Shown one piece after another: positions 3,716 to 33,970 of a DNA stretch of 41,002 bases. This DNA is from an uncultured Lachnospiraceae bacterium (GTDB lineage: Bacteria; Bacillota; Clostridia; Lachnospirales; Lachnospiraceae). Within the stretch, counting starts at the first letter, position 1; every line of letters starts with the position of its first letter. The position numbers were made by a program, and so were the translations under genes. The stretch is taken from NCBI GenBank assembly GCA_965646165.1, contig CBFFYP010000040.1, positions 1 to 41,002 on the forward strand, in the 5' to 3' direction. The notes below the pieces were generated by a model. That model had not been told where the DNA came from, searched no databases, and saw only the letters and a program-made list of their open reading frames with translations.

Positions 3716-3717
3716 AG

Positions 3718-3793
3718 GAGGGGACGCCGAAAGCCGAAGGGAGTTCTATTCCGGGTTCGGAATGGATCTTTCGTTCGATTCCGGCGTCCTGAC
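3718..3793. repeat. Short palindromic family-1-type element straight after the polA stop (GGGGACGCCG ... CGGCGTCC outer stem with internal ATTCCGG/CCGGAAT hairpins). Likely doubles as a terminator.
   Basis: Outer 9-bp inverted repeat 3721-3729 / 3782-3790. Begins with the GGGACGCC hallmark shared by other copies. Confidence 0.6.
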
Positions 3794-3815
3794 TGGTAAT
3801 AACAAAGGTTGAAAG

Positions 3816-16484: not shown

Positions 16485-16512
16485 TTGTTTTTTGTTATAA
16501 AATAGTTATAAT
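16485..16512 (+). promoter_or_regulatory. Sigma-A-type promoter for thi operon (-35 TTGTTT 16485-16490, -10 TATAAT 16507-16512)
   Basis: 16-nt spacer. Predicted TSS just before the riboswitch. Confidence 0.55.
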
Positions 16513-16519
16513 GTAAGAT

Positions 16520-16612
16520 ATGGGGAGCTTATTAGAATAGGCTGAGAGTAAGCATGTGAGGCTTTTACCCTTAAAACCTGATTTGGATAATGCCAACGTA
16601 GGGACATAGTTT
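16520..16612 (+). promoter_or_regulatory. TPP (THI-box) riboswitch
   Basis: GGGGAGC...CTGAGAG...ACCCTTAAAACCTGATTTGGATAATGCCAACGTAGGGA matches the THI element consensus. Lies upstream of thiM-thiE-thiD-thiC. Confidence 0.88.
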
Positions 16613-16623
16613 GCAAAGATAGG

Positions 16624-19125: not shown

Positions 19126-20424
19126 ATGTATACAACGCAAATGGAAGCAGCACGGAAAGGAATCGTAACGGAGCAGTTGAAAATAGTTGCCGAAAAGGAA
19201 AGAATGACAGCAGAAGAGTTAATGCCGCTTGTAGCAGAGGGAAAAGTGGTGATTTGTGCAAATAAAAATCATAGTTGTTTAGAACCAGAGGGAATCGGTT
19301 CGATGCTTCGTACAAAAATCAATGTAAATCTTGGTGTGTCAAGAGATTGTAAAGATTATGATACAGAGATGAAAAAAGTATTGGAAGCGGTTTCTATGGG
19401 GGCACATTCGATTATGGATTTGTCTTCTCATGGAGATACACAGCCGTTTCGAAAAAAATTGACGGCGGAGTGTCCGATTATGATAGGTACGGTTCCGGTT
19501 TATGATGCAGTAATTCATTATCAAAGAGATTTGGCAGAATTAAGTGCAAAAGATTTTTTAGATGTGATTCGGCTTCATGCGGAAAACGGAGTAGATTTTG
19601 TCACTTTGCACTGTGGAATTACCAGAAAAACAATAGAGCAGATTCGAAATCATAAACGAAAGATGAATTTGGTTTCACGGGGAGGTTCTTTGGTTTTTGC
19701 ATGGATGTGCATGACAGGAGAGGAGAATCCGTTTTATCAGTATTATGATGAAATTTTAGAGATTTGCCGGGAATATGATGTAACGATTTCCCTTGGTGAT
19801 GCCTGCCGACCGGGATGCCTTGCGGATGCTTCGGATGTCTGCCAGATAGAAGAATTGGTAAAGTTGGGGGAATTGACAAAACGGGCGTGGGAGAGGGATG
19901 TACAGGTTATGGTAGAAGGACCGGGACATATGCCAATGGATCAGATTGCTGCAAATATGAAAATTCAGCAGACGATTTGTATGGGTGCGCCTTTTTATGT
20001 ATTAGGACCTTTGGTAACGGATATTGCTCCGGGATATGATCATATTACGGCGGCGATAGGCGGAGCGATGGCGGCGGCTTGCGGGGCTTCTTTTCTTTGT
20101 TATGTTACACCGGCAGAACATTTGGCACTGCCAAATTTAGAAGATGTAAAACAGGGAGTGATTGCTTCGAGAATTGCAGCACATGCGGCGGATATTGCAA
20201 AAGGGATTCGAGGTGCTAGAGAACAGGACGATGCTATGGCAAAGGCAAGGAGGGAATTAGATTGGGAAAAACAGTGGGAATGTGCGATTGATCCGGAAAC
20301 GGCAAAGAGGATTCGGGCAGAACGAAAGCCGGAGCAGGAAGATACTTGTTCGATGTGCGGAAAATTTTGTGCTGTGCGGAGTATGAACAAGGCTTTGGCA
20401 GGGGAATATATTGATATTTTATAG
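19126..20424 (+). CDS. thiC: Phosphomethylpyrimidine synthase
   Basis: 432 aa, ThiC family, C-terminal CSMCGKFCA Fe-S motif. Confidence 0.93.
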
Positions 20425-20436
20425 GATGAGGGGGTG

Positions 20437-21000
20437 CTTTCACCGGACGCCAGAGGCGGTTTGCTCCTGTCCTTTGCCTGCTCCGCTCCAAACGGTAAGA
20501 AAGTCTAGGGCTTCTGATTTCGGTTCATCCAACCGGACGAACCGGGGCGCAATTCGCCCTCATTTCAGCCGAAACATAATTGGTGTAAGGAAGAATTTTT
20601 CCAGCTACAAAACAGCCTCTTCTCTATTCTCCGGGCTAAACACGCCCCTTTTTTTGCATACCCTGCATGGAAGCAGGATATGCAAAAAATTCTAAGTTTT
20701 CGAACAGAAGCCCAAAACTTTCTAACCGTTCTCCGAAGTCGCTGGCAAAGGACAGGAGCAAACCGCCTCTCGCTGTTGGCTGAATAACAGTAGAAGTTAT
20801 ATTTTATTACAGAGCAAGTTTTCCGTAAAGTTTAGACATCATTCTTTTTTGTTTCGGAGTCAAGAAACAGTCAGATTCGAAAACAGTGGGCAGCCTGCAG
20901 TGACTTTGGAAAAAAGTTAGAACTTCTTGCTTTTTGGAAACTGGAACAGCAGGCTGCTCACTGTTTTCGAATTTGGCGTCCTCTGACGTCCTCTGGTGTT
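20437..21000. repeat. Family-1 composite structured repeat, copy B (largely the reverse complement of copy A blocks, one hairpin module only)
   Basis: 20440-20510 is the reverse complement of A 515-580. 20510-20625 is the reverse complement of A 387-520. 20632-20690 is the T-run/hairpin/A-run module. 20690-20990 is the reverse complement of A 60-300. Ends ...TTTGGCGTCCTCTGACGTCCTC. Confidence 0.8.
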
Positions 21001-22553: not shown

Positions 22554-23029
22554 TGATAATGGAAATCAGAAGAGCAGAAGAAAGAGATTTGGAAGGAATT
22601 AATCGTTTGTTAATGCAGGTTTGTTTGGTTCATCATAAAGGCAGACCGGATTTATTCCGATATGGAGCAAAAAAATATACAGATGAACAGTTAAAAGAGA
22701 TTATCCGTGATGCTCAGCGACCAATTTTTGTGGCAGCAGATGAGAATCAGAATATTTTAGGATATGCATTTTGTATCTTTCAGCAGCATAAGAACGATAA
22801 TATTTTAACTGATATTAAAACACTGTATATTGATGATTTATGTGTAGAAGAAAACCAAAGAGGACAGCATATCGGCAGCAGTCTATATCAGGCAGTCTAT
22901 GCATTTGCAAAACAAAATTACTGTTATAATGTAACTTTAAATGTATGGAGTTTAAATGAATCGGCAATAAAATTTTATGAAGCGTGTGGTCTAAAGCCAC
23001 AAAAAATAGGAATGGAAGTAATTCTATAG
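22553..23029 (+). CDS. GNAT family N-acetyltransferase
   Basis: 158 aa. Q-R-G-Q-H-I-G acetyl-CoA-binding motif. Start overlaps the previous stop. Confidence 0.75.
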   Translation: MIMEIRRAEERDLEGINRLLMQVCLVHHKGRPDLFRYGAKKYTDEQLKEIIRDAQRPIFVAADENQNILGYAFCIFQQHKNDNILTDIKTLYIDDLCVEENQRGQHIGSSLYQAVYAFAKQNYCYNVTLNVWSLNESAIKFYEACGLKPQKIGMEVIL

Positions 23030-23040
23030 AAGAGGACGCT

Positions 23041-23174
23041 AAAATCCGAAGGAAGGTCTGCTCCGGGTCCGCTTGCGCTTAGCATTTCCTCGTAGCGGAC
23101 ACATAAGGCGCTAAAACACAGCGCCTAAGTGCCGACGGGAAATGATGACCCTGTGCAGACCTTCCTTCGGATTT
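23041..23174 (+). repeat. Family-2 structured repeat, copy 1 (20-bp perfect terminal inverted repeat AAAATCCGAAGGAAGGTCTG / CAGACCTTCCTTCGGATTTT, two internal hairpins)
   Basis: Internal stems GTCCGCT/AGCGGAC and TTAGGCGCT/AGCGCCTAA. Preceded by GAGGACGC. Sits 11 nt after the GNAT stop. Confidence 0.8.
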
Positions 23175-23251
23175 TGGCTGTGTATTTCTGGCAGAAGAAC
23201 AGAATAATTATAAATGTTCAGGAATTAAGTAAAACTTATATAGATAGTGAT

Positions 23252-23632
23252 ATGGAAAGTATTGCAAAATATGTTGGTTTAACTGCTGATAAAGGGAATT
23301 TTAGTAAGAATAAAAATATGTTGTCTGTATTAAAAGACATAGTTTGGGAATGTATGAAACGTTGGAGCAAACTTATAAGGAGGTATTTGATTAAGATGGA
23401 GAGATGGACGATTACAGATGAAATAAGAGAATATTTACCATATACTTGTGCATATGCTGAGTTGTATGGTAAAAAGGTGTCAGAGAATGTATATGAAGTG
23501 GATTTGATTAGTACGTTTGAAACGCCTTCAAGGTATGAACATCAACCAGAATTGTTGTATGAGGAATGTATTAGGCTAGGAAAGAAATGGACGGATATTG
23601 TTTCAAGAGTAAAAAAGGGTATGATATTATAA
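23252..23632 (+). CDS. Hypothetical protein (AT-rich, no recognisable motifs)
   Basis: The ORF track gives 23129-23632, but its 5' part lies inside the repeat. First plausible start is ATG 23252. Confidence 0.3.
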   Translation: MESIAKYVGLTADKGNFSKNKNMLSVLKDIVWECMKRWSKLIRRYLIKMERWTITDEIREYLPYTCAYAELYGKKVSENVYEVDLISTFETPSRYEHQPELLYEECIRLGKKWTDIVSRVKKGMIL

Positions 23633-23861
23633 AAGTTGCAGTTTTTTTCTATCTTTTGATTCAAAAGTTGTTTGGATTGGAAGAAAGGGAGAAAAGGAAG
23701 GATGTATAATCGGACAGTGATTGATGTTGTACAACATACTACAACTTTTCAAGCAAGAAATCCAAGTGGATATGCTGTAAAAAACCGACATGTTTCGTTG
23801 GTATTTTGTCTTGAGCCAGAAATGGAATCAGAGATTACTTGCTATGAGTAAAAAAGTGAAA

Positions 23862-24028
23862 ATTCTGGCTGGTAGAAACAGCTGAAATGGGAAGAAAGGT
23901 CTATGCAGGGTCATCATTTCCCGTCGGCACTTAGGTGCTGTATTTTAGCACCTTAGTGTCCGCTACGAGGAAATGCTAAGCGAGAGCGGACCCGGAATAG
24001 ACCTTTCTTCCCATTTCAGCGTCCCCCT
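23862..24028 (-). repeat. Family-2 structured repeat, copy 2 (inverted relative to copy 1; overlaps the last codons and stop of the GH2 gene)
   Basis: 15-bp IR GGGAAGAAAGGTCTA/TAGACCTTTCTTCCC. Internal hairpin TTAGGTGCT/AGCACCTAA carries a compensatory pair relative to copy 1. GGGGGACGC terminus encodes ...RGGR-stop of the GH2 protein. Confidence 0.75.
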
Positions 24029-25779
24029 CGAATTTTTTGATTCCATTCAATCAGGGTTTGAGCATCGATTTTTAAAATTTTTCTGTCATAGGTAAAGATT
24101 CCGTTGATTTCTTCTTCTACGTCGGAAAGCTGTGTATAAACGGAAGCGGAAAGTCCGTTTTGAAATGCTGGAAAAATCAGTGTTTCCATTAATTTATGAT
24201 AGCCGTTTGTCAAAGATTTTCGGTTAGGAAAGGTGCGGTAGCCAAATGTTTTTGAGGAATAGCTATGTTTTGGTACATGCCAAGCGTAGCCGCCAAACTC
24301 AGTCAGAGCAAGTGCACGTCTTTCCGGGTGGAGAATCAGTGAGAAAAAGTAGTAGTGAATACTTTTGATATCTCCTCCGCCTTGATCGAACCAGCCGCTG
24401 GCATGATCGATCAGTCGTTCTGGATCCAGACTGCGAATCAGTTCTGCTGCAAAGAGTGCCCGAAATTGTCCCCAGCCTTCGTTAAATGGAACCCAGCATA
24501 TAATGCAGGGGTGGGAAGAGAGAAAGCGGATGCTGGAAACCATTTCTTTTGCCCATTCTTTTCTGCCTTCTTTATTTTGACGTGAAAGCAGTGCATGAGG
24601 GTGATCGAAAACTCTTTTGCCGGAATAGTTAAAAAGGGTTGCCATATAAGTAACAAACCAGTGATGATAATGACTTCCGCCGTTTACCATATCCTGCCAG
24701 ACTAAAATACCAAGCCGATCACAGGTATAATACCAGCGTTCGGATTCGATTTTCAGATGTTTTCGTATCATATTAAAGCCTAGTTTTTTTACAGAAAGGA
24801 TATCAAAGATCATGGCTTCTTCGCATGGCGGGGTGTAAAGACCGTCCGGCCAGTATCCCTGATCGAGGATTCCGACTTGAGGATAAGGACGGTTGTTGAG
24901 AAAAATTCGCCGAATCCCATTAGAATCCGTTTGTATATCACATTTTCGAAGAGCAAAGTAACTAGATACTTGATCGGTGGCAGTTGTAATGGTTACTTGA
25001 TATAGATAGGGATGTTCCGGGCTCCATGGATAAAATTCTTTAATTGGAATCAGGAAGCTTTGATTGCTGGTAATGGAGTAAGAACATGTGCCGGACGGAA
25101 GAAGCAGCTTGATGGAAGCAGGACAAGTTTCTTTAGTAGAAATCTTGACAGTTATTTCTTTTTTATCATAGTTGGGAGTGAATTTTATATAGCGTATAAA
25201 ATTATCCGGTACAATTTCCATCCAAACCGTCTGCCAGATACCGCTTTGTGCCGTATAAAACATACCACTGTTATGCAGTTTTTGTTTTCCACGGCTGTGA
25301 TAGGAGGTATCGCTGGGATCGGTAACTCGAACAAAGAGATCACAGATCTCTTGAGATTGGAAGGTGTCTTGAACTGCTTCTGTAATATTTATAGAAAAAG
25401 GGAGATAACCTCCGCTGTGTGATCCGACTTCTTTTTGATTGATATAAACGGTGCAGGATTGATCGACTGCACCAAAATGCAGATAGAGTCGTTCGGTAGG
25501 TTGGAGTTGTAAAAAAGAAATCGTTCTGTGATACCAAAGAAATTCATTTGGTTTTAATTGGCGTTTTACTCCTGATAATTGGGATTCAGGAGAAAATGGA
25601 ACTAAAATTTTTCCCTTATAGGCGGAGGGAAATTTGGCGTTTCGGCTGATGGTATAGTCCCAATAGCCATTTAAATTGATATAAGAGGAGCGAACCATAG
25701 TAGGACGGGGGTATTCCTGCCAGACATTTGTTTCTGTAATATGTTTGGTCCAGTAGGTTTCTAGCGTATGTTTTTTCAT
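24016..25779 (-). CDS. Glycoside hydrolase family 2 enzyme (beta-glucuronidase/beta-galactosidase-like), cytoplasmic
   Basis: N-terminal sugar-binding LNGYWDY...HFGAVDQSCTVYINQKEVGSHSGGYLPF aligns with E. coli GusA LDGLWAF...RFDAVTHYGKVWVNNQEVMEHQGGYTPF. NE catalytic region WVPFNEGWG. Confidence 0.85.
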   Translation of the reverse strand: MKKHTLETYWTKHITETNVWQEYPRPTMVRSSYINLNGYWDYTISRNAKFPSAYKGKILVPFSPESQLSGVKRQLKPNEFLWYHRTISFLQLQPTERLYLHFGAVDQSCTVYINQKEVGSHSGGYLPFSINITEAVQDTFQSQEICDLFVRVTDPSDTSYHSRGKQKLHNSGMFYTAQSGIWQTVWMEIVPDNFIRYIKFTPNYDKKEITVKISTKETCPASIKLLLPSGTCSYSITSNQSFLIPIKEFYPWSPEHPYLYQVTITTATDQVSSYFALRKCDIQTDSNGIRRIFLNNRPYPQVGILDQGYWPDGLYTPPCEEAMIFDILSVKKLGFNMIRKHLKIESERWYYTCDRLGILVWQDMVNGGSHYHHWFVTYMATLFNYSGKRVFDHPHALLSRQNKEGRKEWAKEMVSSIRFLSSHPCIICWVPFNEGWGQFRALFAAELIRSLDPERLIDHASGWFDQGGGDIKSIHYYFFSLILHPERRALALTEFGGYAWHVPKHSYSSKTFGYRTFPNRKSLTNGYHKLMETLIFPAFQNGLSASVYTQLSDVEEEINGIFTYDRKILKIDAQTLIEWNQKIRGGR

Positions 25780-30300: not shown

Positions 30301-30302
30301 TA

Positions 30303-30470
30303 AGGGAAACGCTGAAATCCAAAAGGGGGTCTGCTCCGGGCTCGCTTGCGCTTAGCATTTCCTATTTTCATAGCGGACACATAAGGCACTAAAATACAGC
30401 AACACAGTGCTTAAGTGCCGACGGGAAATGATGACCCTGCATAGAACCCCATTTGGCTTTCGGCTGTGTG
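30303..30470 (+). repeat. Family-2 structured repeat, copy 3
   Basis: Begins GGGAAACGCTGAAATCC 3 nt after the pepD stop. Outer arms GGGGGTCTGC / GCATAGAACCCC covary with copy 1 (AAGG/CCTT to GGGG/CCCC). Confidence 0.75.
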
Positions 30471-30647
30471 TACCTGATTGACATAATTTTTTAGCACCTG
30501 ATTTGTGCAGATTTTTGATTGTGTGTTGTTAGATTAGGGAAAGTTTTTTATATTTGGAGTATTTTGATTTAGAGGACGGGAGTTATGATGTTGTGATAGC
30601 TGAGAGAAAATGAAGTGGATTTATGATGAGAAGAAAAAGGAGACAGT

Positions 30648-31727
30648 ATGGCTAAGACAAACGAAAGAAGTGTAGGAAGACAAAAGGGAGCTTTTGCAAG
30701 GAAGCCGTTGTGGTATAAGGTTTTTATGATTACGGCACTGGTGATTATTTTGTGTTTGGTAGGAATGATATTTTATGTGTATTATCTGATGTCGCTGGCA
30801 AATTATGATGATGGTTCGGATCATGTTGTGCAGGAGGACTATTTTGAAACTGTACCAGTGGAAGAGTATACGCATTTACCAGAGGCTACATTGGAAACGG
30901 TTGCAGATAAGGATACGGATGGACGTTCGAAAGAGGGAATTACGAATATTTTATTGTTGGGATTGGATCAGGAGTCCGGGAATCTTTCGGATGCTTTGAT
31001 TGTAGTGACGTTAGATACGAATCATAAAAAAATTATGCTGACTTCTTTTATGAGAGATATGCTGGTGCAGATTCCGGGGTATTCGAATAATAAATTGAAT
31101 ACACCTTATCAAAAGGGAGGAATTCAACTGGTGTATGATGTATTTTCTCATAATTTTGATTTGGATTTGGATGGTTATGTGGCGATTAATTATAATATGC
31201 TGGAGAAGGTAATTGATAAGCTGGGAGGAATTTCGCTTTATATTGATGCGGATGAAGCGAATTTCCAGAACACATCGAATTTTATTTCAAATCCGGCTTA
31301 TCGAAATTTAATACCGGGGGCAACACAGACGTTAAATGGCTGTCAGGTAGTTGGATATTGCAGAAATCGAGTTAGTTTAAAGACAAGTGATTTTGGACGG
31401 ACACAGAAGCAGCGGGTTGTATTGAATGCGATTTATGAAAAATTTAAGGATCAGAGTTTGCCGGAGTTACTTTCCTTGATGGAAACGGTGCTGCCATATG
31501 TGACTACGGATTTGGATTTGATGGAGATGACTTCACTTGCTACCAAGGTGTTTGATGCTGGAGTGCTTTCTGCTGAGATGGAACAGTTTCGGATTCCTGT
31601 AGATGGAAGTTATACGGATAGCTGGTATAATGCAATGCTGGTGCTGGATGTGGATTTTGAGAAAAATATTGAGGAACTGCATCGATTTATTTTTGGAGAA
31701 GAGGAAGAGGACAAAGACGAAAAATAG
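30648..31727 (+). CDS. LytR-CpsA-Psr (LCP) family cell-envelope phosphotransferase
   Basis: N-terminal TM helix. LCP core ILLLGLDQESGNLSDALIVVTLD... Confidence 0.88.
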   Translation: MAKTNERSVGRQKGAFARKPLWYKVFMITALVIILCLVGMIFYVYYLMSLANYDDGSDHVVQEDYFETVPVEEYTHLPEATLETVADKDTDGRSKEGITNILLLGLDQESGNLSDALIVVTLDTNHKKIMLTSFMRDMLVQIPGYSNNKLNTPYQKGGIQLVYDVFSHNFDLDLDGYVAINYNMLEKVIDKLGGISLYIDADEANFQNTSNFISNPAYRNLIPGATQTLNGCQVVGYCRNRVSLKTSDFGRTQKQRVVLNAIYEKFKDQSLPELLSLMETVLPYVTTDLDLMEMTSLATKVFDAGVLSAEMEQFRIPVDGSYTDSWYNAMLVLDVDFEKNIEELHRFIFGEEEEDKDEK

Positions 31728-31785
31728 AAGAAGATTCTAGAAATGACATAGCTTAGGCTATGTCATTTTTGGTATACTCTTTTGT

Positions 31786-32766
31786 TTGAGAGAATATGAT
31801 GTAAGGAATTGTTTGGGGGATAAATATTTTAAGATAGGGGGGATGGGGTTGGAATATCGGATTGTACAGAAAGAGAAGCAGCGTAAGAATCGAAAGGCTT
31901 TTTATTGGCTGATAGGGCTTTGTTTGTTTTTTGCTTTTTTTAATGTGGTTTTAATAGAACAATTAGTTTTTCAGGGTACGGTGCGCAGACTTCCTTCCTA
32001 TGCAGAAGAAACGGAGAGATTTCGGGAAATGTGGATGAGTGAGGAGGCAATTTTGGATTTAAAGGAATTTCAGGAAAACTATGATGTTCCTTTGGAGGAG
32101 GTGCTTGCTGTATGGATGGGAGTGAGTGAATTTCGTTTGGATCGGTTTGCTGCTATGCCAGATTCTGTGCGGGAGATCGAGTATTTTCAGGATAGTAAGG
32201 AATGGTATTTAGAACGGCAGGAGGAGGCTTATCAGAAGCTGGTAGAGGCTTATCGGGCAGTGATTTCTGATATTTTGTATTTTCCTGTTCCAAAGAGCAG
32301 TAATAGAAAGGCAGCGGATATTTATTATAGTAATGGCTGGGGGAGTGAACGGGTCTATAAAGATGCTTCTCATGTGCATGAGGGCTGTGACATTATGGCG
32401 GGAAATAATGAACGGGGGTATTTTCCGATTGTCAGTATGACGGACGGAGTAGTGGAACGGATTGGATGGTTAGAGAAGGGCGGGTATCGAATTGGGATTC
32501 GCAGTCCGAGTGGAGGATATTTCTATTATGCGCATCTTTATCGATACGCAAAGGATTGGAAAGAGGGAGATAGTGTAAAGGCAGGGGAATTGATTGGATT
32601 TATGGGGGACAGCGGGTATAGTAAGGTGGAGGGAACGGTAGGGAATTTTGCCGTGCATCTGCATCTGGGTATTTATATTCAGACGGAACATTATGTGGAA
32701 CAGAGTGTAAATCCTTATTGGATTTTGCGCTATTTTGAGGAAAAACGGCTTGGATGGGAATATTAA
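31786..32766 (+). CDS. M23 family metallopeptidase (C-terminal LytM domain) with N-terminal TM segment
   Basis: HEGCDIMAG ... GDSGYS ... HLHLGIY (HxxxD / HxH). Start uncertain; possibly ATG 31843. Confidence 0.75.
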   Translation: MREYDVRNCLGDKYFKIGGMGLEYRIVQKEKQRKNRKAFYWLIGLCLFFAFFNVVLIEQLVFQGTVRRLPSYAEETERFREMWMSEEAILDLKEFQENYDVPLEEVLAVWMGVSEFRLDRFAAMPDSVREIEYFQDSKEWYLERQEEAYQKLVEAYRAVISDILYFPVPKSSNRKAADIYYSNGWGSERVYKDASHVHEGCDIMAGNNERGYFPIVSMTDGVVERIGWLEKGGYRIGIRSPSGGYFYYAHLYRYAKDWKEGDSVKAGELIGFMGDSGYSKVEGTVGNFAVHLHLGIYIQTEHYVEQSVNPYWILRYFEEKRLGWEY

Positions 32767-33698
32767 ATAATAAGTCTTTGAAGAAATTGTTCGACTTGGG
32801 ATTTTCCTTTTAATAAATCAAGCCATCTTTTGGGAATGGTTTCAAAGCCATATAAAATTCCGGCAAGTCCGCCTGTTACACAAGCTGTGGTGTCGGTGTC
32901 ATTGCCTAATAGAATGGCTTGTTTTACAGCAGATTCATAGCTGGAAGTATGGTTTAGAATCATAAATGCACTGCGCAGACAGTCTACTACATAACCTGAT
33001 CCGCTGCCTTGCCAAGGTTCGTCTGGGCGAATACTCCATTCTAGTTCTTGGTCGTATTTGGGCATAGATTGGTAAATAGAGCGCAGGGAAGAAAGAGCCG
33101 TGGCAAGGGCTGTGGGAAAGTCGAGGTTTTTTAGTAAATAGCGTGCGGTCAGGCAGTAGAGGGCACAGCAGACTTGATTGCAGGGATGTCCGTGGGTGAT
33201 AAGACATTGGTTGTGAGCATCGGTTACTAGCTGCAGATCTGTTCCAGTGTGATAGAGGGCGAGAGGAAGGACTCTCATAAGTGCGCCGTTTCCTTTGCCG
33301 TTTGGACGCAGAAGACCGCATTTTTCGCAAGGTGTGCCTGTATGGTACGCATGAAGTGCTTCACTGGTTTGGATGCCAACGTCAAATACGATTCCTTCTA
33401 TTGCTAAATAGCCGTTTTCATACCAAGCAGAAAGCCGATCAGAAAAGTCTTTTAGGCAAAATTTATAACAGGTAAGAAGGCTGTCTAATAGGCAGAGTGC
33501 TTGAGAGCCATCGTCTGACCATGTTCCGGCGGGGACGGATGCATGGGAACGGGGGAAATAAGGGGGCGGTGTCATTTCAATTTCAGAATAGGGCGGGATT
33601 TCTTCGGCGGGGTGAAATTCGTAGGGGACGCCTAATGCATCACCGATTAGAAGACCGTATAATCCACCGGCGATTTGATTGTAGTTTTTGTTTTTCAT
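32763..33698 (-). CDS. ADP-ribosylglycohydrolase family protein
   Basis: GGLYGLLIGDALGVPYEF and GTWSDDGSQALCLLDSL motifs. Start ATG at 33698 with AAGGAG RBS; the ORF track extends to 33800. Confidence 0.8.
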   Translation of the reverse strand: MKNKNYNQIAGGLYGLLIGDALGVPYEFHPAEEIPPYSEIEMTPPPYFPRSHASVPAGTWSDDGSQALCLLDSLLTCYKFCLKDFSDRLSAWYENGYLAIEGIVFDVGIQTSEALHAYHTGTPCEKCGLLRPNGKGNGALMRVLPLALYHTGTDLQLVTDAHNQCLITHGHPCNQVCCALYCLTARYLLKNLDFPTALATALSSLRSIYQSMPKYDQELEWSIRPDEPWQGSGSGYVVDCLRSAFMILNHTSSYESAVKQAILLGNDTDTTACVTGGLAGILYGFETIPKRWLDLLKGKSQVEQFLQRLII

Positions 33699-33744
33699 GG
33701 GAAACTCCTTTTTGTAGTTGTTGTTAGTGATTGATTTTGTTGAA

Positions 33745-33915
33745 GAAGGGACGCCAAAGCTCCAAGGAAGGTCTGTTCCGGGCTCGCTTGTGCTTAGCAT
33801 TTCTTATTTCCTCATAGCGGACACTAAGGCGCTAAAACACAGCAACACAACGTCTAAGTGCCGAGATGACCCTGCGCAGACCTTCCTTGGGGCTTTGGCT
33901 GTGTATTTCGAGCGA
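33745..33915 (+). repeat. Family-2 structured repeat, copy 4
   Basis: GGGACGCCAAAGCTCCAAGGAAGGTCTG ... CAGACCTTCCTTGGGGCTTTGG. Outer stem retains pairing via T-G wobble after a double substitution relative to copy 1. Confidence 0.75.
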
Positions 33916-33970
33916 AAAAAATTTTTTCTTATGATTGATTATATTACTACGGCTATTAAAAGTCAATGTT

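Follow-up and report, generated by a model that had tools for sequence, protein, structure and literature searches.

A widespread hairpin-forming repeat family in Lachnospiraceae genomes with covarying stems and a conserved apex

The Correia/NEMIS elements of Neisseria, the ERIC elements of enterobacteria and the RUP elements of pneumococcus are repeats of the miniature inverted-repeat transposable element (MITE) type that fold into long RNA hairpins. Repetitive extragenic palindromic (REP) sequences, bacterial interspersed mosaic elements (BIMEs) and REPINs are multi-copy palindromic units that lie outside genes. In REPINs, which are mobile DNA repeats, compensatory changes that keep the hairpin are common (PMC3116915), and group 1 of the RAYT proteins is reported to occur in Clostridia (PMC5581495). 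Here, we analyzed a stretch of 41,002 nucleotides from an uncultured Lachnospiraceae bacterium (GenBank assembly GCA_965646165.1, contig CBFFYP010000040.1), referred to as the window, which carries four copies of a hairpin-forming repeat that we call Family 2. A first-pass annotation of the window had noticed that the stems of these copies differ and stay paired, and had proposed that the element may be a small structured RNA or a structured transcript-terminating element. We found that Family 2 is a widespread and apparently hitherto undescribed repeat family in Lachnospiraceae genomes. With moderate confidence, we favor the reading of Family 2 as mobile, non-autonomous DNA that is present in many copies, a foldback repeat akin to MITEs, REP/BIME elements and REPINs.

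Like REP, BIME and REPIN sequences, Family 2 consists of extragenic multi-copy palindromic units. It shares with REPs and REPINs the preference for inverted doublets (here 14 to 0) and the lack of a linked transposase at most copies, and with REPINs the maintenance of the hairpin by compensatory changes. A REP-like lead is found in the core, where GTAG stands directly 5' of an imperfect bulged hairpin (CGTAG-CGG(A)CAC…GTGCCG), embedded in a much larger structure. On the other hand, a Family-2 unit measures 160-260 nt compared to 20-40 nt for a REP and about 100 nt for a REPIN, and each unit is itself a three-way-junction hairpin. Furthermore, Family 2 conserves its apex and its basal motif instead of two terminal REPs, and the 96 Family-2 loci searched yielded no RAYT or Y1 gene.

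The Correia/NEMIS, ERIC and RUP elements are similar in that they are non-coding units of 100-200 bp with inverted-repeat arms, lie near gene ends and within operons in both orientations, and would give transcripts carrying a long hairpin. TA flanks, as known from Correia and RUP elements, occur in one Family-2 subfamily. Family 2 also has several of the traits by which MITEs are recognized, being short, non-coding and multi-copy, with terminal inverted repeats and with presence or absence between related species. Ordinary MITEs have conserved termini and a free interior, whereas Family 2 combines free arms with an apex that is conserved from genus to genus; moreover, no parent insertion sequence (IS) was found. 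The structured RNAs collected in Rfam are comparable in their conserved junctions and loops, covarying helices and apical hairpins of variable length. They differ from Family 2, which shows no wobble asymmetry, occurs in both orientations and is gained and lost between species. Unlike in an intrinsic terminator, the outer stem of the window copies is not directly followed by a U run.

A conserved apex between freely varying arms

Family-2 units are hairpin-forming, non-coding and 160-260 bases long. At the base lies the motif RRGGGAC|GC…GC|TGTGT, which is found in many genera and is asymmetric in its outermost part (GGGAC on one side, TGTGT on the other). Of 20 copies, all have the T that follows the stem and 18 have the C that precedes it. 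The paired arms range from 22 to more than 80 bp, and their sequence is essentially free provided that pairing is kept. The apex of about 100 nt is asymmetric and conserved and consists, in this order, of CGCTnnnnCGCT, helix P2, GTAG-CGG(A)CAC-UAA, a variable hairpin and UAAGUGCCGA. The two GC dinucleotides within CGCTnnnnCGCT pair with each other, and in variants (e.g. at loci L041 and L032) a C to T change covaries with a G to A change. The P2 portion of the apex, with all that this helix closes, has a bulged A and an A·A mismatch, both of which are conserved. Variant core types carry CGGTAC or CGGCAC in place of CGGACAC.

Scanning the contigs of one genome per species with an exact 20-base core pattern (TAGCGGACAC…TAAGTGCCGA) revealed at least 96 matching loci. 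Among the matches listed, nearly all belong to Lachnospiraceae metagenome-assembled genomes (MAGs), and a few are labelled Eubacteriaceae, Selenomonadaceae or Clostridia. They include MAGs assigned to the cultured species Anaerostipes hadrus and [Clostridium] symbiosum as well as an isolate, Eubacterium sp. AM49-13BH. Many matches lie at contig ends, as is expected of repeats that break assemblies. With a covariance model we recovered 123 copies in 100 loci. A single genome, MAG_249, holds at least 15 near-identical whole units of 260 bp, flanked by TA|GG…CC|TA. The same core was found within unrelated arms in different genomes. The arms of the four window copies share homology with one another as well as with copies that occupy other loci in other genomes. 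Nesting also occurs: at L037 and L058, an outer hairpin that has the same basal motif holds a core-bearing unit in its apex.

The core pattern gave no match in viral contigs, and blastn gave none in 72,556 plasmids. No Rfam 15 family matched the element in the whole window and 15 diverse loci at the gathering threshold, or in copies 1 and 2 at E values up to 10; only chance overlaps of at most 19 bits were seen. The first-pass annotation had allowed that its element might prove to be a known Rfam entry, and since no known element was matched its proposal does not fall on this point. Identity with a tRNA or tmRNA was rejected, as none was detected in the window. In the literature on MITEs, repeats and RAYTs in Lachnospiraceae and Clostridia we found no description of the family.

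The window contains exactly four Family-2 copies (Table 1). Repeat finding and alignment agree on this number, and so does a covariance model that was derived from 73 non-redundant relatives. The next match of this model after the four copies reached 13.5 bits. Copies 1, 2 and 3 are in sense orientation and begin 0-6 nt past the stop codon of the upstream gene; copy 1 starts 1 nt past the stop codon of a GNAT gene (23027-23029). Copy 4 is antisense to both flanking genes. In copies 1, 2 and 4, the fold is a hairpin whose outer stem spans about 28-32 bp and is nearly perfect. Copy 1 folded as well in DNA (-51.9 kcal/mol, z = -9.96) as in RNA (-86.5 kcal/mol, z = -8.95). Copy 4 has an intact outer stem with one U·G; 8 nt (CGGGAAAT) are deleted from the 3' strand of its P2, and an insertion is found on the 5' side. 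Copy 3 folds no better than shuffled sequences (z = -1.69, equalled by 12 of 200 shuffles). Its 5' arm is unpaired with its own 3' half, and its apical hairpin contains an 8-nt insertion. We could confirm that copies 3 and 4 bracket the LCP, M23 and ADP-ribosylglycohydrolase genes, as had been described before.

The sequence does contain the outer-stem strings that the first-pass annotation had read in copy 1 and in copy 4, and the T·G wobble of copy 4 is there as well. Its more general statement that the outer stems differ yet stay paired holds for copies 1, 2 and 4, where changes are matched on both strands, but not for the poorly folding copy 3. Likewise, copies 1 and 2 genuinely differ in the inner hairpin by a C-G to T-A exchange (GGCGCT/AGCGCC versus GGTGCT/AGCACC), whereas the 5' strand had been mis-transcribed and the strands had been mixed. 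Read on the strand of the element, the 5' side is TAAGGCGCT, which leaves the conserved A·A mismatch.

With more copies included, four helices strongly covary over at least 120 copies from about 60 genomes. In a 73-sequence alignment of the core, 18 of 27 pairs show double changes and 89.5% of the cells are paired. Shuffled alignments reached 71.5% (0 of 500 attained the observed value) and alignments with a slid partner column 31-41%. The covariation score of the core was 0.452 compared to 0.141 after shuffling. For the 30-pair outer stem we used a nine-copy alignment of the window subfamily, in which 19 pairs are double-changed and 93% of the cells are paired (shuffles 76%, with 0 of 500 attaining the observed value; slid columns 29-52%). 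Hence, the compensation in the stems is real and far beyond chance. The suspicion that the element is more than a DNA palindrome was also borne out, since the three-way-junction core is asymmetric and combines a conserved bulge, a conserved mismatch and conserved loops with the four covarying helices.

Gain, loss and recombination of copies

All four copies are present and identical in the same-species contigs that we fetched. By comparison, all four sites are empty in sister species whose flanking proteins, including the M20 peptidase, are 72-80% identical, and the covariance model found no match in the sister-species loci. The M20 and LCP genes lie 21-64 nt apart in the sister species compared to 347 nt in the window. 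Between the GNAT and GH2 genes the sister species have 58 nt with a small terminator hairpin, whereas the window has copy 1, a 672-bp segment and copy 2. The sister species also lack copy 4 and the neighboring IS, both of which are absent from sister species L111.

The 672-bp segment holds only small open reading frames (ORFs), gave no Pfam match and has no homologue in any other locus. Together with copies 1 and 2 it is absent from sister species L113, and it may be the cargo of a composite insertion. An 8-nt identity (AATCCGAA) between the arm of copy 1 and the terminator at the empty site of L113 was judged to be chance, because the string is also found in copies from other loci and genomes. 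The TGA stop codon of the GH2 gene (24018-24016, minus strand) lies inside the 5' arm of copy 2 (24016-24033), and thus the last GH2 residues are encoded by the element. The GH2 protein comprises 587 aa in the window and 628 aa in sister species L113 (298-2184). On either side of copy 4 we found a 9-nt direct repeat (TGATTGATT; 33728-33736 and 33932-33940), which is either a target duplication or chance, and GAAGA stands on either side of copy 1 (approximately 23030-23034, and 23194-23198).

Copies also recombine. A copy at locus L099 (2486-2660) and copy 3 are identical in their 3' halves, and in the L099 copy the 5' arm pairs with this half (24 bp with two A·C). The same LCP gene follows downstream, and the upstream gene is a different one, encoding a cell-wall-repeat protein that is not in the window. 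Either copy 3 arose by recombination between two copies, or the L099 contig is an assembly chimera, induced by the repeat, that joins copy 3 to a further copy. In both cases the comparison shows that the two arms of copy 3 are of different lineages, and copy 3 would pair poorly because it is recombinant.

Close pairs of copies were arranged tail-to-tail in 14 cases, in tandem in 3 and head-to-head in none, whatever the orientation of the flanking genes. Tail-to-tail doublets are formed by copies 1 and 2 of the window (23030-24033) and are found at L001, L002, L010, L042, L047, L071, L072, L077, L081, L082, L085 and L087. Within doublets the core matches are spaced by approximately 35-850 nt, and often a canonical core is combined with a variant core type.

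No gene is linked to the family in the loci analyzed. A Pfam scan of 117 neighboring ORFs revealed a diverse, mostly metabolic and regulatory set in which no family occurs more than twice. All-versus-all clustering of the ORFs from the 96 loci returned only common families (ABC ATPases, response regulators, MCP, AraC) as candidates for a linked gene. Searches of the same ORFs for RAYT or Y1 proteins, using phmmer with IS608 and IS200 TnpA queries, gave none, and Y1_Tnp is not among the 25 families listed for the neighboring ORFs. A supposed autonomous element of 2 kb with matching ends in L013 proved to consist of two ordinary copies on either side of toxin-antitoxin genes. Mobilization by the IS630-family element next to copy 4 was rejected as well, its 31-nt ends (33942-33972 and 35056-35086) being unrelated to the repeat. 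At the end of the window we detected a HEARO RNA, the omega RNA of IscB from the IS200/IS605 superfamily (Table 1). A link to Family 2 was dropped, as its flank shows no similarity to the repeat.

For a mobile foldback repeat of this kind we infer a single-stranded intermediate and a trans-acting enzyme. The unit would be recognized in its folded, single-stranded form, at the base and at the apex, by an enzyme encoded elsewhere in the genome. If only base, apex and pairing matter, lineages with perfect hairpins would multiply. Mismatches in the hairpin may in addition be copied across by template switching or repair, and template switching is able to produce a multi-base compensatory change in a single step (PMC8794818). 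Replicative selection and template-switch correction might together generate the differences between copies that appear compensatory. Once inserted, copies would decay and recombine. In transcribed copies, a long double-stranded hairpin would come to lie between cistrons or at the 3' end of the message, and this hairpin might alter message stability as a side effect.

Several observations weigh against mobility. Transposases and recombinases are missing from the 25 families listed for the 117 neighboring ORFs, and no transposase, recombinase or reverse transcriptase was found near any copy in the 96 loci of up to 8 kb. An autonomous parent with the same ends was found neither in these loci nor in the window. 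We saw no clean target-site duplication and no consistent length, TA flanks being confined to one subfamily, and we obtained no pair of filled and empty sites within one species. Unlike in ordinary MITEs, the conserved part is the apex and not the termini. A moderate preference for the sense orientation of flanking genes (31 to 13) and the conservation of the core behind pgk, both treated below, also count on this side.

Wobble pairs, orientation and alternative explanations

In structured RNAs that are under purifying selection, G·U pairs greatly outnumber A·C pairs. For Family 2 it had been argued that compensation which tolerates G-U pairs points to selection on RNA structure. To count mismatches in the arms, the 5' arm was aligned to the reverse complement of the 3' arm and both transition mismatches were scored equally; an A·C on the element strand corresponds to a would-be G·U on the opposite strand. 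The arms of about 85 copies comprise 2721 Watson-Crick pairs compared to about 450 mismatched or gapped positions, and 99 G·U and 107 A·C were counted in them. In helix P2, 47 G·U stand against 43 A·C. If the mismatches are mostly neutral decay after insertion, these counts argue against an RNA function that is maintained locus by locus, though not against every RNA role. One-sided G·U pairs make up about 2% of the cells compared to about 20% with double changes. Splitting the counts by the transcription direction of the flanking genes gave 43 versus 31 in favor of the transcribed strand, which is not significant. The argument from wobble tolerance is not supported by these numbers.

With respect to neighboring ORFs, 31 copies are sense, 13 antisense, 9 convergent and 7 divergent; about 30% of the copies are antisense to their neighbors. 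A replication-linked orientation in the manner of IS200/IS605 was considered and rejected, since the bias along the GC skew (50 to 31) is no stronger than the gene-based one. A signal scan revealed no promoter or terminator signal standing out at the window copies. Their outer stem is followed by GCTGTGTATTTC… with no U run directly 3'. The window copies thus lack a terminator-like U tail, and the idea of an intrinsic terminator is not supported for them. Some relatives carry a CGTTTTT after the inner hairpin, which is variable. Because G·U is not more common than A·C, about 30% of the copies are antisense and a terminator tail is missing, we do not take the covariation as RNA evidence. The conclusion that Family 2 is therefore an RNA is not supported. 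A mobile DNA element accounts better for the covariation pattern than a dedicated RNA gene would, though the core may have a role at the RNA level.

It is possible, if rather unlikely, that Family 2 is a cis-acting structured RNA module whose RNA fold is under selection. Such a module might act as a stabilizer in 3' untranslated regions or between cistrons, as a processing site (e.g. an RNase III substrate) or as a small RNA, and its mobility would serve its spread only. The four covarying helices, the conserved junctions with bulged A and A·A mismatch and the strong asymmetry of the core are in line with this idea. The same is true for the position of three of the four window copies, in sense 0-6 nt after a stop codon, for the overall sense bias and for the slightly higher G·U count on the transcribed strand. 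However, G·U pairs are not in excess over A·C pairs, neither in the arms nor in P2, and one-sided G·U are rare relative to double changes. Antisense copies are frequent and doublets are indifferent to gene orientation. In the window, copies 3 and 4 are degenerate and all four sites are empty in the sister species, and neither a promoter or terminator signature nor an Rfam match speaks for an RNA.

The spacer between pgk and tpiA in the glycolytic operon bears on this question from both sides. At two loci, L026 (3951-4173) and L091 (7261-7483), a sense copy directly follows pgk, and the two copies appear to be orthologous. The cores (79 nt) are 96% identical, whereas the third codon positions of pgk are 54% identical, with saturated synonymous sites, and its first and second codon positions are 97-99% identical. 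The arms are about 31% identical and unalignable, each still being paired, and the downstream spacers are about 38% identical. Conservation of the core where neutral sites are saturated argues for an RNA module. Such a pattern would arise if the core is under selection where it stands, possibly as RNA, or if a lineage of cores moves without its arms. Five further pgk-tpiA spacers comprise two with antisense members and unrelated arms (L115 2771-2899 and L116 2829-2943) and three that are empty (L117-L119). Thus, 4 of 7 species have a family member in this spacer, in either orientation and with arms that are unrelated, and the spacer is a recurrent insertion site. The occurrence in both orientations speaks against an RNA module. 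Consequently, the argument from orthology of L026 and L091 is weakened, though not removed.

We regard it as unlikely that only the core is a mobile or exchangeable module, which would enter the apex of pre-existing hairpins while the arms are largely host sequence or belong to other elements. Arms of such origin would explain why they differ yet pair. Cores that are shared between unrelated arms in different genomes, including the near-identical cores with unalignable arms behind pgk, would be expected here, as would the nested core-bearing units of L037 and L058. In addition, the window contains a core-less hairpin with homologous arms (3716-3795), and the empty sites in L113 and L119 carry small hairpins just past the stop codon. 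However, arms and core clearly multiply together in some genomes, as seen in the at least 15 near-identical whole units of MAG_249. The window arms are homologous to one another and to copies at other loci in other genomes, and the basal motif lies outside the arms and yet travels with the core. Furthermore, no filled and empty pair with a core-sized insertion in an otherwise identical hairpin was found.

Neutral DNA palindromes, in which pairing is kept only by template-switch correction of quasi-palindromes and neither function nor mobility is selected, are a distinctly improbable explanation. One-step compensation of several bases by template switching (PMC8794818), the symmetry of G·U and A·C and the decay of copies after insertion are all compatible with it. 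It leaves unexplained why unpaired core positions and the basal motif are nearly invariant across genera, why copy number expands and why doublets are strictly tail-to-tail.

Plasmids and conjugative elements use folded single-strand DNA signals such as transfer origins and ssoA-type lagging-strand origins. An origin of this kind was suggested by the highly structured region and by a loose likeness of TAGCGG to CS-6 (TAGCGT) and of GTGCCGACG to part of RSB (TTATGCCGAGAAAATTT), two conserved ssoA motifs (PMC4598088). This reading is close to refuted because of copy number and chromosomal setting, with dozens of chromosomal copies among diverse metabolic and regulatory genes. No match was found in the plasmids or viral contigs searched, and the order of the motifs is reversed relative to RSB then CS-6 in ssoA (PMC4598088). 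Integron attC sites, group II intron domain V, kink-turns and self-cleaving ribozymes were dropped, since their defining sequences or partners, judged by consensus features, are lacking.

Returning to the mobile repeat as our preferred reading, a wider and quite speculative view is that these repeats are the visible half of a structure-recognizing mobile system undescribed in Firmicutes, or that the apex is a new protein-binding RNA or DNA module on hairpin repeats. In the first case the folded strand would be read at GGGAC|GC…GC|TGT and at the apex core by an unlinked, possibly domesticated enzyme, which might be analogous to RAYT or new. The apex might be able to move between hairpins or be retained under selection. 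In the second case the apex module would hitch-hike and might be co-opted at loci such as the pgk-tpiA spacer. Should a trans-acting partner be found, REPIN/RAYT-like biology would extend to Firmicutes, or a new mechanism would come into view.

Most knowledge of the genomes of Lachnospiraceae, which belong to the most abundant bacteria of the gut, comes from fragmented MAGs. An assembly-breaking repeat at gene ends and inside core operons such as pgk-tpiA is relevant for annotation, strain typing and studies of genome stability. It rewrites 3' ends of genes, as in the case of GH2, and mediates rearrangements, as in the chimeric copy 3. A covariance model for the family is now in hand. Textbook RNA covariation in what appears to be mobile DNA is also a warning against using compensation alone as evidence for an RNA gene, and the family provides a natural data set for telling selection from template-switch repair.

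Related hairpins and other features of the window

Coordinates of the copies, of their parts and of further features are compiled in Table 1. A partial match of the repeat finder (3720-3801) was considered as a fifth copy and rejected, since the covariance model gave no match and the hairpin is a core-less relative of Family 2. It folds with z = -3.3 as DNA and adjoins the end of an 886-aa ORF. A second group of nested hairpin repeats, named Family 1, carries the basal motif CCGGAC|GCCAGAGG…CCTCTCGC|TGTTGG at 20436-20984, with the reverse complement at 20860-20984. Family 1 copies share GGACGCC… / …GGCTGTT with Family 2 in both orientations. With their common basal motif, both families look like members of one superfamily with different apex modules.

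Table 1. Family-2 copies, related repeats and further features of the window.
Feature	Position	Strand	Remarks
Copy 1, intact	23030-23193	+	sequence; covariance model 81.1 bits; RNA and DNA folds
Copy 1, basal motif GAGGAC	23032-23037		
Copy 1, 5' arm	23038-23069		
Copy 1, CGCTTGCGCT	23070-23079		
Copy 1, P2 5' strand	23080-23092		
Copy 1, GTAG-CGGACAC	23092-23102		
Copy 1, apical hairpin	23103-23129		
Copy 1, TGCCGA	23130-23135		
Copy 1, P2 3' strand	23136-23147		
Copy 1, 3' arm	23147-23178		
Copy 1, tail TGTGTATTTCTGGCA	23179-23193		
Segment between copies 1 and 2	23194-23865		672 bp; only small ORFs
Copy 2, intact	23866-24033	-	sequence; covariance model 94.9 bits
Copy 3, chimera	30301-30479	+	L099 comparison; fold z = -1.69; covariance model 66.7 bits
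Copy 4, degenerate core	33745-33913	+	sequence; covariance model 40.1 bits
IS630-family insertion sequence	33942-35086		directly beside copy 4; terminal inverted repeats begin at TA
DDE_3 transposase of IS630-family element	33971-35017	-	
Core-less relative	3716-3795	+	basal motif and homologous arms GGGGACGCCGAAAGCCGAAGGGAGTTCTATTCCGGG…GGCGTCC; tetraloop in place of the core
Family 1 nested hairpin repeats	1-581, 20436-20984, 36009-36507	both orientations	
Solo arm fragment GGACGCAGGAATCCAAAGAAAGATCC	14026-14052	+	after the 1086-aa repeat protein
HEARO RNA	40853-41002	+	98.6 bits; cut by the window end
Thiamine pyrophosphate (TPP) riboswitch	16511-16621	+	69.4 bits; upstream of thiamine gene cluster
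ThiC-like ORF	19126-20424		

The 1086-aa ORF (10630-13890), which precedes the solo arm fragment, contains at least six tandem repeats of 66 nt at 13295-13822, which probably encode a repetitive surface-protein domain.

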